NCBI GenBank assembly: GCA_045596865.1 | Contig: JAZODF010000074.1 | Location: 24,407 to 88,406, forward strand | Source of the DNA: Eubacteriales bacterium | GTDB taxonomy: Bacteria > Bacillota > Clostridia > Oscillospirales > CAG-272 | Length of the DNA: 64,000 nucleotides | Reading direction: 5' to 3' | Part shown: piece by piece, positions 60,542 through 63,700 of the stretch | Layout of the letters: every line of letters begins with the position of its first letter | How positions within the stretch are numbered: the first letter of the stretch is position 1 | Made by a program: the position numbers and the translations under genes | Notes under the pieces: model-generated | Database searches by the model: none | Told to the model about the DNA's origin: nothing | What the model saw: only the letters and a program-made list of their open reading frames with translations

Positions 60542-60570
60542 TTGCAATTTCTCCCGTATCATGCTATAAT
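60542..60570 (+). promoter_or_regulatory. Sigma-A-type promoter (extended -10) of the surface-protein gene
   Basis: TTGCAA (60542-60547), 17-nt spacer, TGcTATAAT (60562-60570). Confidence 0.65.
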
Positions 60571-60576
60571 GTACTT

Positions 60577-60729
60577 GCCAAACAATCTTAATATTCGTAT
60601 GCATAGTCCTTTTTCTCGTTATAGGGAAACTATGCCTTTTTGTGATACCGTCAAACGTCCTCGTTTTGGTAAAAGCGCGGCTCCCGTTTGATGGTATGGC
60701 GAAGCTATGCTACGAATAGATTGTTTGGC
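60577..60729 (+). promoter_or_regulatory. Highly structured ~150-nt leader element (candidate cis-regulatory RNA or MITE-like palindrome)
   Basis: There is long-range pairing 60577-60588/60718-60729 (12 bp), 60593-60599/60711-60717 (7 bp) and 60601-60606/60705-60710 (6 bp). An inner 13-bp helix pairs 60645-60657 with 60685-60697. A competing local hairpin pairs 60601-60607 with 60629-60635. Confidence 0.6.
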
Positions 60730-60752
60730 GACAATTGGGGCTGGCGTTTTTT

Positions 60753-60786
60753 GTGCGACGGCTTCGGCTGTCGCACTTTTATTTTT
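60753..60786 (+). terminator. Intrinsic terminator inside the leader, immediately before the RBS
   Basis: 10-bp stem GTGCGACGGC (60753-60762) / GCTGTCGCAC (60767-60776) with a TTCG tetraloop, then TTTTATTTTT. GGAGGAG starts at 60787. Confidence 0.75.
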
Positions 60787-60796
60787 GGAGGAGAGA

Positions 60797-63700
60797 ATGA
60801 AAAAAGTTGTTTTGTCGATAACCTTGCTACTGCTCGTAGTAGTAACCTCTTTGCTCTTTGTTTCCTGTGGCAATGATACGCTAAAAGGCACCGAGGTTGA
60901 CCTTGAAGGCTTCACGGAAATTGAGGACGCGTCCCTTGGTACTGTATTTTATATAGAGGTGCCAAGCTCGAAAATCGTGTATTCCCTAAACGATGTCGTA
61001 AAGGTAAATAAAAAATCCTCATGGTTTGTTTCCACCGACCTTGAGGGTAATAATAGAATTCCAAGCAAAACGGTTGAGCTTTTTGAGGGAAACAATGTTT
61101 TTTTCCTTATGGTTGAGGACAAGGATTCTAATGTCAAGCAATATACCCTTCTCATTAGAAGAAGAGCTACCTATACCGTGAAATATTATTCCAGCGCATA
61201 TACCGTTCATTCGGTAGAAGAGGTGGAGGAAGGAACGCTTGCAACTCCACCTGTTTTGACAGCGCCTTTGGGGTATCATCTTCAAGGATGGAGTTATGAT
61301 TTCTCGCTCCCGATAAATGGAGATGTCGAGGCGGGGGTAATTTGGGCTCCCAACGAATATACGCTCACTTATAATGCAAATGGCGGAACGCCTAGCAAAA
61401 ACACCCAAACTGTAAAGTATGGCATGAGTTTTACTCTTGCTACCGCAACTCGTCCGGGATACACCTTCGAGGGGTGGTATAACGGAATCACAAAATTGTA
61501 TGCGGGCGAGTGGAGATACACAGAAAATATAGTAGTTGTAGCAAAATGGATTCCGAATGATTATTCAATAAGTTATTATCTTAACGGTGGCACTAATAAC
61601 GCCAATAACCCCACCGTCTATAGCACCGGCGATAGCATAACATTGCGCGAGCCCACGAAAGAAGGATACACCTTCCTTGGCTGGACGTATTCAGGAGTAA
61701 CCGAGCCAACCAAGAACGTAGTTATTTTCTCCGGCGAATATGGCAATAAAGCATTTACTGCAAATTGGCAGGCTAACGAATATAGCCTGACCTTTAATGC
61801 GGATGGCGGTAATTGTGACGCCCTTGAAATGAATGTTGTTTACGATGAATACATTACACTTCCTACTGCCTATAAAGAGGGGTATGAATTCCTCGGCTGG
61901 TATGACGGAATGACCGAAATTACGAGCGGCTATTGGAAAACAGACAGCAACGTTGACCTCGTAGCAAAATGGAAGCTTATTCCTTATCGTATCACTTACA
62001 CTCTTAACGGTGGAACTAACGCTGCAATGAACCCCGAAACCTATAATATCATAAGTGAAAGCTTTTCTCTTGAAGATCCTGTTCGAGAGGGATACGAATT
62101 CCTCGGTTGGACCTATGAGGGACAAAGCACTCCTACAAAGCTTGTGAGTGTTGAAAACGGAAGTAAGGGTGACAGAGCATTTATTGCTAATTGGCAGGCT
62201 AAGTCCTTTACTGTAGGTTTTGATGCAAATGGTGGCGAGTGTTCTACCGATCCCCTTGAAGTAACGTATGACGATCACTGCGATCTGCCTGTTCCCGCAA
62301 GAGTAGGTCACACCTTCGCGGGTTGGTACTATAACGGAAAGAAGTATGAGAGCGGAATCTGTAAAATAGCAGACAATATTACACTTGTCGCACAGTGGGA
62401 CGTTATCGACTACGTTATCAATTATACTCTTAACGGCGGGACCAATCCCATGAGTAATCCTTCCTCGTATAATATTCTCACGGGCGCGATAATTGCGAAT
62501 CCAACTCGTACGGGCTATACCTTCCTCGGTTGGACTTACGAGGGGCAAAGCACGCCCGTGAAGGATTTGTCCTTCGCTAAAGGTACTACCGAGGACAAAA
62601 CTCTCGTAGCACATTGGGAGGCAAACAATTACAAGATTACACTTGATGCTAATGGTGGAAATGTAGATAGCGATAAGCTCGACGTTGCTTACGACGACAA
62701 CTTCGTGCTTCCTCAACCCACAAGGGCAGGATATACCTTTACAGGCTGGTATAACGGTAGCACAAAGGTTACGAGCGGTACTTGGAAGACCGCTGACAAT
62801 ATGACGCTCAAAGCAAGTTGGAGCATTGTCACGTATAGCATCTCCTATGTTATGAACGGCGGAGTTAACAGCACTAGCAATCCTACCACCTTTACCGTTG
62901 TAAGTGGCGCGACTATTAAAAATCCCACACGCACGGGCTACACCTTCCTCGGTTGGACATACTCGGGCGTCACAACACCTACGAAGGACGTAACACTCTC
63001 GGCGGGTACTATCGACAGTAAGGTGTTTACGGCTCATTGGCAGGCAAACGAATATACCTTGACCTTTAACGCCAACGGCGGTGAGGTTGAAAACGGCAGC
63101 ATGCTCGTCACCTATGACGATAACTACTCTGTACCTGTTCCCACAAGAACAGGCTATATCTTCAAGGGCTGGTTTGACGGAAATACACAGTATTCGGGCG
63201 GTGCTTGGAAGGCTGCAAGTGATGTTATGGTCGTTGCAAAATGGGAAGCGAAGACCTATACGATTACCTATAACGCAAACGGCGGTAGCGTGAACGGTGC
63301 TACTCAAACCGTAACCTTCGATAAGGAATTCGTTCTCCGTGAGCCTTCTCGTACAGGTTACACCTTCCTCGGTTGGTATAACGGAGAAACGAAGGTTATT
63401 GGTGGTGTTTGGACTGTTGATAATAATATGTCACTCAAAGCGGAGTGGCAGGCAAACAGCTACGCTGTAACCTATGACGCAAACGGTGGTACTGCTTCTC
63501 ACACCGGGGACACTGCAACCTATGATTCTGACTTTACCCTTGCAACCGCAGAGAGAGTAGGCTATACCTTTGTCGGCTGGTATGATGGAACAAAGCTTTA
63601 TACAGACGGCACTTGGAAAACGGCAAATACCGTAAAGCTCGTTGCTAAATGGACTGCAAATACCGACACGAAGTACGTTGTAAATCACCATTTGCAGAAT

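Follow-up and report, generated by a model that had tools for sequence, protein, structure and literature searches.

Oscillospirales are abundant, mostly uncultured bacteria of gut and rumen, and almost nothing is known of their gene regulation. In the genome of one of them, a stretch of 64,000 nt (hereafter the window) carries a promoter, a long rod-like RNA structure and a terminator directly ahead of the gene of a giant surface protein. What is this leader RNA, does it control the gene behind it, and by what means could it do so?

Layout of the locus

Promoter, ribosome-binding site (RBS) and gene are positioned in the window as follows.

60542-60570, + strand: sigma-A type promoter, composed of TTGCAA (60542-47), a 17-nt spacer, TG (60562-63) and TATAAT (60565-70)
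60787-60799, + strand: RBS GGAGGAG (60787-93) and start codon ATG (60797) of the regulated gene
60797-64000 and continuing past the window end, + strand: regulated gene, encoding a giant lipoprotein of Flg_new (Listeria-Bacteroides) repeats (PF09479)

A prior sequence-only reading had placed the transcription start at the first base of a long closing helix, downstream of a TTGCAA-17-TGcTATAAT promoter, and this was borne out. The extended −10 element (TGcTATAAT) is near-consensus and ends at 60570, and the RNA is predicted to start at about G60577, 6 nt from the end of the −10 hexamer and precisely the first base of P1, the 12-bp closing helix. Among the 111 distinct copies of the family described below, the distance from the −10 end to G1 is 6-7 nt in 109, the −10 element has at most one mismatch in 97 and the TG extension is found in 98. 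The same reading had a UUCG terminator followed at once by the RBS of a giant surface protein, and indeed the terminator and its U-tract extend to 60786, GGAGGAG occupies 60787-93 and the Flg_new ORF opens at 60797. This ORF is at least 1068 aa long and matches PF09479 with E = 6e-120, in 12 stretches.

A widespread family of leader RNAs

The window's leader is a copy of an RNA of ~205 nt that is widespread in gut Clostridia (Oscillospirales) and apparently undescribed. Genomes of relatives carry several copies of its last ~60 nt, frequently together with the rest of the unit, and such copies are spread over different families within the order. In an exact-pattern scan that covered one genome per prokaryote species, at least 120 contigs carried the pattern; among the matches listed, nearly all were gut or rumen MAGs of Oscillospiraceae, Ruminococcaceae, Acutalibacteraceae, Faecousia or 'Clostridia'. 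A total of 117 full copies were extracted (112 with a recognisable terminator; 108 distinct; 83 after an 85% identity filter). The 77 of these 83 that are 190-235 nt long make up alignment A2, and a covariance model (R1) was built. Of 301 sampled Oscillospirales genomes, 103 gave at least one copy with R1, as did 59 of 151 genera; ten rich genomes harbour four to eight copies each, and copies were also found on nine IMG/VR contigs and in two phage records. In the window's own genome, R1 recovered three copies: that of the window, a diverged but full one on contig 41, which precedes a lipoprotein gene and whose P1 reads GCUAAAC/GUUUAGC, and a degenerate one.

The leader belongs to no catalogued family, and its logic is that of a Firmicute-style attenuator with an anti-antiterminator. 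Against Rfam 15, which includes c-di-GMP-I/II, T-box, PyrR, SAM, ydaO, raiA and 6S, the window region gave no match even at E ≤ 10 (best score 16.7 bits, against a cut-off of 100), and at 18 other loci holding the family no score came near a cut-off. The layout that had been proposed, that of a transcription-attenuating leader of an unrecognised class, is supported. No description of the leader was found in the literature, nor by a sequence search of 200 of the 408 supplementary files to an RNA catalogue of the human microbiome (PMC8040213). 6S RNA, Y RNA, retrons and TnpB guide RNA were discarded as candidates, the leader being multi-copy, with no partner genes nearby and, save for the copies without an ORF call treated below, always with an ORF downstream.

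A rod with a three-way junction

The minimum free energy (MFE) fold of 60577-60732, at −69.7 kcal/mol, is a rod with a three-way junction. Dinucleotide shuffles averaged −34.7 ± 3.9 kcal/mol (z = −9.1; 0 of 200 shuffles as good), and the complementary strand of the same region reached only −50.9 kcal/mol, which is consistent with an RNA read from the + strand. Every helix listed from the letters alone occurs in this fold (60577-88/60718-29, 60593-99/60711-17, 60601-07/60704-10 and the 13-bp 60645-57/60685-97). The rod consists of the following parts.

60577-60588, + strand: 5′ strand of P1 (GCCAAACAAUCU), partner 60718-60729
60589-60592, + strand: A-rich bulge or hinge UAAU between P1 and P1b (family consensus AAUA)
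60593-60607, + strand: 5′ strand of P1b, partner 60704-60717
60612-60641, + strand: P2 hairpin (60612-17/60624-29), conserved UAUGCC and U5 junction (60637-41)
60639-60657, + strand: 5′ strand of P3 (60639-43 and 60645-57), partners 60685-97 and 60699-703
60718-60729, + strand: 3′ strand of P1 (AGAUUGUUUGGC), from the MFE fold and family pair counts

Throughout the family, the parts follow one another in the order promoter, P1, AAUA, variable P1b, P2 junction, variable P3, 3′ strand of P1, linker, e′, terminator and RBS. P1 reads GCCAAAC.../...GUUUGGC; P2 ends in UAUACCC and is followed by the U5 junction, the consensus of P2 and junction in A2 being UAUACCCUUUU; the tip of P3 reads GAAUUUG-GUAAAAAYG-CAAAUUCC; after the 3′ strand of P1 come a linker GAC-AAU-Y and GGAGUUUGCGUUUUU; and the terminator, GUGCG....CUUCGG....CGCAC, is followed by U's and then the RBS. 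In a shorter variant of ~160 nt, P2 and the junction are absent and the remaining parts are kept; only P1, the AAUA hinge and the platform are common to long and short variants.

The helices of the rod are kept in different ways. Across the 77 copies that are <85% identical, P1 is 97.8% paired with double changes at five pairs, the copies in this and the following pair counts being related sequences, so that covariation counts overstate independence. For P1b, the duplex energy is −7.5 kcal/mol with its own partner versus −2.8 kcal/mol with the partners from other copies (77 copies), with nearly all arm sequences distinct (76 and 77 of 77); for P3, the family-wide values are −9.6 and −2.7 kcal/mol. 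Thus hardly any two copies have the same P1b or P3 sequence, while pairing with the own partner is kept. The hinge (columns 14-17 of A2) is nearly invariant with no helix to account for it, and by eye an AAUA-like bulge is present in most of the 20 short-variant copies inspected.

Three other ideas were not upheld. The pairing of GCATAGT with ACTATGC (60601-07/60629-35), which had been put forward as an exclusive alternative to the rod, is present in the window copy and its close relatives and is not conserved family-wide; across the 77 copies, the 5′ arm of P1b pairs with its own P2 3′ arm at −3.6 kcal/mol and with that of another copy at −3.2 kcal/mol. A simple fold-back geometry predicts positive length compensation between P1+P1b and P3, which is absent (r = −0.30), the sum of the lengths being roughly constant at 45.6 ± 4.8 nt. 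As for leader-peptide attenuation, the AUG within UAUGCC is UAUACC in most copies (alignment, by eye) and no ORF is conserved.

Four mutually exclusive helices

Four mutually exclusive helices form a chain: d:e, e:e′, the antiterminator and the terminator. Their strands and pairings in the window are listed here.

60659-60667, + strand: d, 5′ strand of the apical hairpin, sequestering part of e (60672-80)
60671-60684, + strand: e, anti-antiterminator strand (AAAAGCGCGGCUCC), complementary to e′
60730-60752, + strand: linker GACAAUU (60730-36) and e′ GGGGCUGGCGUUUUUU (60737-52), the shared strand
60753-60786, + strand: intrinsic terminator GUGCGACGGC-UUCG-GCUGUCGCAC (60753-76; 10-bp stem) and U-tract (60777-86)
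60659-67 with 60672-80, + strand: d:e, local hairpin at the tip of P3
60671-84 with 60737-50, + strand: e:e′, long-range helix, the anti-antiterminator
60730-47 with 60755-72, + strand: antiterminator, linker and e′ against the 5′ arm, UUCG loop and upper 3′ arm of the terminator

All four are conserved as pairings. In the same 77 copies, d:e is 86.8% paired (double changes at four pairs), e:e′, of 15 bp, is 97.2% paired (four pairs), the terminator is 98.2% paired (five pairs) and the antiterminator core is 96.7% paired (four pairs), with slid-partner controls for the latter at 19-55%. In folds of several short variants judged by eye, d:e grows to 12-14 bp (for example, 14 bp in L152). Furthermore, in copies on viral contigs a three-way compensation was seen, with e changing from UUCC to UUUU, e′ from GGAG to AAAG and the terminator loop from CUUCGG to CUUUGG; this joint change supports the e:e′ helix and the antiterminator together. 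With helices so well defined by covariation, compensatory mutations and the fishing for a ligand or protein can be designed from sequence.

The antiterminator pairing accounts for two conserved sequences of the terminator, its CUUCGG loop and its GUGCG base. Several of the antiterminator pairs are conserved as G-U (at two positions, for example, in 66 and 69 of 77 copies) and work in + strand RNA only. The partial complementarity of GGCGAC to GTCGC in the terminator 3′ arm, remarked on earlier, does reach the outer edge of this helix; the real helix, however, is 60730-60747/60755-60772 and takes in the UUCG loop. A 7-bp helix between linker and t′ had been considered as the antiterminator and was too weak; the actual helix emerged from MFE folds of short variants. 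In an early search, the best duplex partners of each terminator arm lay at scattered positions.

Antiterminator and terminator folds are nearly balanced in energy. The window copy has −88.8 kcal/mol when folded with the terminator and −88.2 kcal/mol when the antiterminator is forced, and the antiterminator is the MFE fold as long as the 3′ half of the terminator has yet to be transcribed; as separate duplexes, e:e′ has −18.3, d:e −7.3 and the terminator −17.9 kcal/mol. Family means are −16.6 kcal/mol for the antiterminator, −15.2 for the terminator, −18.8 for e:e′ and −4.9 for d:e, and in 66% of copies the antiterminator equals or exceeds the terminator in stability. The spacing from e to e′ is roughly constant across the family.

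An RNA element rather than a DNA element

The P1 strands also form a 12-bp inverted repeat around ~130 bp, and some viral contigs carry leader copies, both of which could suit an element acting at the DNA level, whether as a MITE, as a promoter segment that inverts between the two P1 repeats or as a recombination site of the attC kind. The MITE, raised in the sequence-only reading as an alternative, is rejected because the window's genome has the full 156-nt element only once (same-genome search: one exact copy, one diverged full copy, one degenerate). Copies in the family have divergent stems and always lie between promoter and RBS; their stems differ throughout and still pair, and the conserved G-U pairs of the antiterminator work on + strand RNA only. 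An inverton of the cwpV type was dismissed on the orientation of the inner motif, which is forward in 112 of 117 copies, while none has the inverted motif alone. GCCAAAC/GTTTGGC of P1 resembles integron core sites at six of seven positions; this attC likeness is judged coincidental, as the copies form no arrays and have promoters and terminators. A DNA-level reading is therefore refuted for practical purposes, with hardly any probability left to it.

A putative attenuation relay

The leader, a member of a large uncatalogued family of Oscillospirales leaders, is very probably, as judged from sequence comparison and modelled folds, a cis-acting transcription attenuator. The promoter is separated from the RBS of the gene behind it by an intrinsic terminator; a covarying antiterminator excludes that terminator; and an anti-antiterminator, e:e′, sequesters the 5′ strand of the antiterminator.

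The four exclusive helices, their covariation and their energy balance are the basis of the following relay. A strong, constitutive-looking promoter would begin the RNA with the opening base of P1, and the first ~150 nt would then fold into the rod (P1, AAUA hinge, P1b, P2 and P3, with the three-way junction), with segment e at the tip of P3 partly held in the small d:e hairpin. The 3′ tail e′ could pair with e over ~15 bp, a long-range helix predicted to form a pseudoknot with the rod, or alternatively linker and e′ could pair with the 5′ arm, UUCG loop and upper 3′ arm of the terminator as the antiterminator. If e were unavailable, the antiterminator would form first as the RNA emerges and polymerase would read into the surface-protein gene; if e captured e′, no antiterminator would form, the terminator would fold and an RNA of ~205 nt would be released. 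The rod, via its hinge or its junction, would then be the sensor that governs the access of e to e′, and the outcome would probably be settled kinetically during transcription. Two observations sit less well with cis attenuation, namely the lengths of P1+P1b and P3, which do not compensate as a simple fold-back predicts, and an arrangement in tandem units, considered next.

Downstream genes and the alternative of a trans-acting RNA

In 103 of the 112 family copies, an RBS and a start codon follow the terminator on the same strand, mostly at a terminator-to-start distance of ~20-60 nt and in some cases up to ~190 nt (the reach of the search being ~200 nt); nine of the 112 are without an ORF call. 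In the two tandems read, each unit has its own promoter and no ORF follows the first unit, an arrangement that also fits a free-standing RNA product.

It is therefore to be asked whether the main product might be a free-standing small RNA of ~205 nt acting in trans, to which the downstream genes are incidental. The leader's own strong promoter and strong terminator, the promoter of each tandem unit and the nine cargo-less copies would all agree with such an RNA. However, the same-strand RBS and start codon found after the terminator in nearly all copies, usually with no space for another promoter, speak against it, and a conserved antiterminator would be purposeless in a pure small RNA gene. 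We regard the trans-acting RNA as improbable and retain cis attenuation of the downstream gene.

Most downstream genes encode proteins of the cell surface or of accessory function, among them BspA-type LRR, Flg_new and AbrB-like proteins and lipoproteins. Among 92 downstream proteins, the Pfam tally was BspA-type LRR_5 (15), LRR_8 (6), MazE/AbrB (4), Zinc ribbon (4), Flg_new (3), SHOCT (3), FNIP (3), C-type lectin (2), Dockerin (2), DUF4234 (2), Ltp lipoprotein (1) and Collagen (1), and many others are lipoproteins or membrane proteins without a Pfam family. One Cys-rich protein, likewise unmatched in Pfam, turns up ten times or more; most of its copies have ~55-70 aa and two have 123 aa, and in some cases tandem leader units precede it. 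Conservation with covariation upstream of Flg_new- and LRR-type genes in relatives was found, in support of the attenuating-leader layout proposed beforehand. In roughly one third of the species sampled, the leader precedes several adhesin-like and other surface or accessory genes of the same genome; its signal probably sets how the cell surface is presented to host, phage and neighbours.

Candidate triggers

Two kinds of trigger, a small molecule or ion and an RNA-binding protein, are rated about equally, each as a modest possibility. In the first case, rod, hinge and junction would be the aptamer of a new riboswitch class, favouring or blocking the e:e′ pseudoknot. The multi-copy regulon, the full expression platforms and the tandem units would suit a riboswitch, conserved unpaired nucleotides (the AAUA hinge and the UAUACCC-UUUUU junction) have no explanation in the helices, and no matching protein gene adjoins the copies as far as neighbourhoods were checked. 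On the other hand, long, regular helices whose length varies from copy to copy are not typical of aptamers, the three-way junction is altogether missing in short variants, and the regulated genes, which are not metabolic, indicate no ligand.

The obvious ligand for an adhesin regulon would be c-di-GMP. The c-di-GMP-I/II riboswitches of Clostridia likewise occur in several copies per genome ahead of surface or adhesin genes and control termination, but the leader matches neither Rfam model and many carrier genomes encode no GGDEF cyclase. A Pfam search for GGDEF found none in G004, G166, G291, G124 and G078 (95-99% complete), nor in the window's own genome (G000; 81% complete); of these, G004 belongs to the same genus as the window's genome, is 99% complete and holds six leader copies.

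In the second case, a protein bound to the rod, the hinge or the A-rich apical loop would decide the access of e to e′. Three-tier logic of anti-antiterminator, antiterminator and terminator is used by the PyrR, L10 and L20 leaders (PMC4538822, PMC1865079). The pyr attenuators of PyrR and the L10/L20 leaders (Bacillus subtilis) resemble the present family further in their ~150-200 nt leaders and several copies per genome, and in them a factor stabilises the anti-antiterminator so that the terminator forms; the present leader differs in having no PyrR-type Rfam match and a regulon of surface and accessory rather than pyrimidine or ribosomal genes. A protein contact would also suit the conservation of the P1 sequence next to helices that drift freely, and the fact that P1, hinge and platform are all that long and short variants have in common.

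No candidate protein, however, emerged among Hfq, CsrA and ANTAR, which are absent from G004 and most leader-rich genomes. By Pfam, Hfq was absent from G004 and most other leader-rich genomes tested, CsrA from all eleven leader-positive genomes tested, and ANTAR from G000, G004, G308, G049, G166, G291, G078 and G121. An ANTAR-controlled leader was discarded, both for want of an ANTAR protein and because the terminator loop is a UUCG tetraloop, whereas ANTAR control calls for a pair of hexaloop hairpins that overlap the terminator. The genes for c-di-GMP synthesis, Hfq, CsrA and ANTAR being missing from leader-rich genomes, all four are unlikely as the trigger, with gene absence scored in draft genomes and hence not proof of absence.

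A third, ligand-free case is a kinetic device that responds to the speed of transcription, to pausing or to NTP level, or a fixed partial terminator or insulator behind a strong promoter. Such a device would fit the isoenergetic antiterminator and terminator with the antiterminator forming first co-transcriptionally, the nearly fixed distance between e and e′, and a conserved GCGUUUUU(U) run just ahead of the terminator that may be a pause site. Yet a fixed attenuator would need neither a conserved anti-antiterminator nor its competitor d, and the regulon has no link to nucleotide pools. This case appears unlikely, less so than the trans-acting RNA above.

Being the only unpaired motif common to long and short variants, the AAUA hinge is the best candidate contact. 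It may be, and we put it forward as a conjecture, that rod and hinge constitute the sensor of a new riboswitch class or an RNA-only kinetic sensor, governing an accessory surface-protein regulon in response to a signal other than c-di-GMP. If so, a single sensor would command BspA-type LRR, Flg_new, lectin, dockerin, collagen-like, AbrB-like and small Cys-rich proteins, and its range would take in uncultured Oscillospirales of gut and rumen as well as some phages of these bacteria.

Relation to known expression platforms

The preQ1-I, fluoride and ZTP riboswitches are transcriptional OFF switches in which the 3′ strand of a pseudoknot is common to the antiterminator. As in the leader, loop-to-3′-tail pairing sequesters a strand that otherwise prevents the terminator; their aptamers, however, are small with tightly conserved cores, whereas the leader has a 15-bp pairing, a rod of the 45-bp class and freely drifting helices.

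Platforms of the S-box (SAM-I) type share with the leader a 5′ sensor domain, three exclusive helices and an intrinsic terminator just before the RBS, with a strand common to sensor and antiterminator setting the outcome, but there is no relation in sequence or Rfam model. In contrast to the S-box, the anti-antiterminator strand of the leader is found at the looped tip of a long helix, from where it pairs with the tail in a predicted pseudoknot, a competitor (d) of e adds a further tier, and the antiterminator makes use of the terminator loop and upper 3′ arm, hence the conservation of UUCG for pairing. The fourth tier d, the long pseudoknot-like anti-antiterminator and the antiterminator that uses the terminator loop set the leader apart, and it offers RNA biology a large orphan class of attenuators with an unusually explicit four-tier relay and an antiterminator encoded in the terminator's own loop.

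Geometry of the leader rod

Across the 77 family copies of alignment A2 (<85% identical, 190-235 nt), the strand distance from e, the strand at the tip of helix P3, to the end of the closing helix P1 is roughly constant at 45.6 ± 4.8 nt (columns 139-202), and the three-way junction floats, lying at differing points on the rod. The combined length of P1 and P1b was correlated with that of P3 at r = -0.30.

In the window, a 15-codon frame was observed at 60753-60800, which starts at a GUG within the terminator of the leader; its UGA stop codon shares bases with the main ATG (AUGA). The frame lacks a well-spaced RBS and, when compared by eye, was not kept in one other leader copy; it is probably due to chance.

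Further copies in the same genome

Two further relatives of the leader were located in the genome of the window:

contig 41, 11935-12137 (L149:1501-1703): second full leader copy, 5′ of a lipoprotein gene
contig 18, 1505-1653 (L151:1501-1649), minus strand: degenerate short relative (39 bits), 5′ of another lipoprotein gene

The contig 41 copy carries a compensated pair change in P1 (GCUAAAC/GUUUAGC), and its e′, the 3′ tail able to pair with e, is GGAGUUUGUGUUUUU. In the contig 18 relative, P1 (GCCACACAAC/GUUGUGUGGC) and P1b are retained, as are the A-rich bulge and a terminator of the form GUGCG...CGCAC, with neither e nor e′ being recognisable in it.

Tandem leaders and a small Cys-rich protein

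Leader units in tandem were found at two loci:

L181:1-530: tandem leader units
L182, 560-130 (minus strand): tandem leader units

A separate promoter and terminator belong to every unit, and no ORF follows the first one. One tandem consists of a short variant (without P2 and the junction), then a long variant, then the gene of a small Cys-rich protein. At no fewer than 10 loci this gene recurs immediately 3′ of the leader, in some of them preceded by tandem leaders:

L013:1726-1905; L014; L016; L024; L035; L047; L071; L074; L098; L181:535-741: Cys-rich protein gene

The protein, of ~55-70 aa in most copies and 123 aa in two, features the motif M.KNIQKKIIDITGIELTPG.P..CLGNGEQGFECCCDECDYYLLCFPE and matched no Pfam family.

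Leader copies on viral contigs and phages

Leader copies were also present on viral sequences, where the genes 3′ of them encode Flg_new-type lipoproteins and membrane proteins of small size:

L172-L180 (IMG/VR): leader copies on predicted viral contigs
MT835503.1, MT835845.1: leader copies on two human-faecal phage records

Therefore, the element is also carried by phages or prophages.
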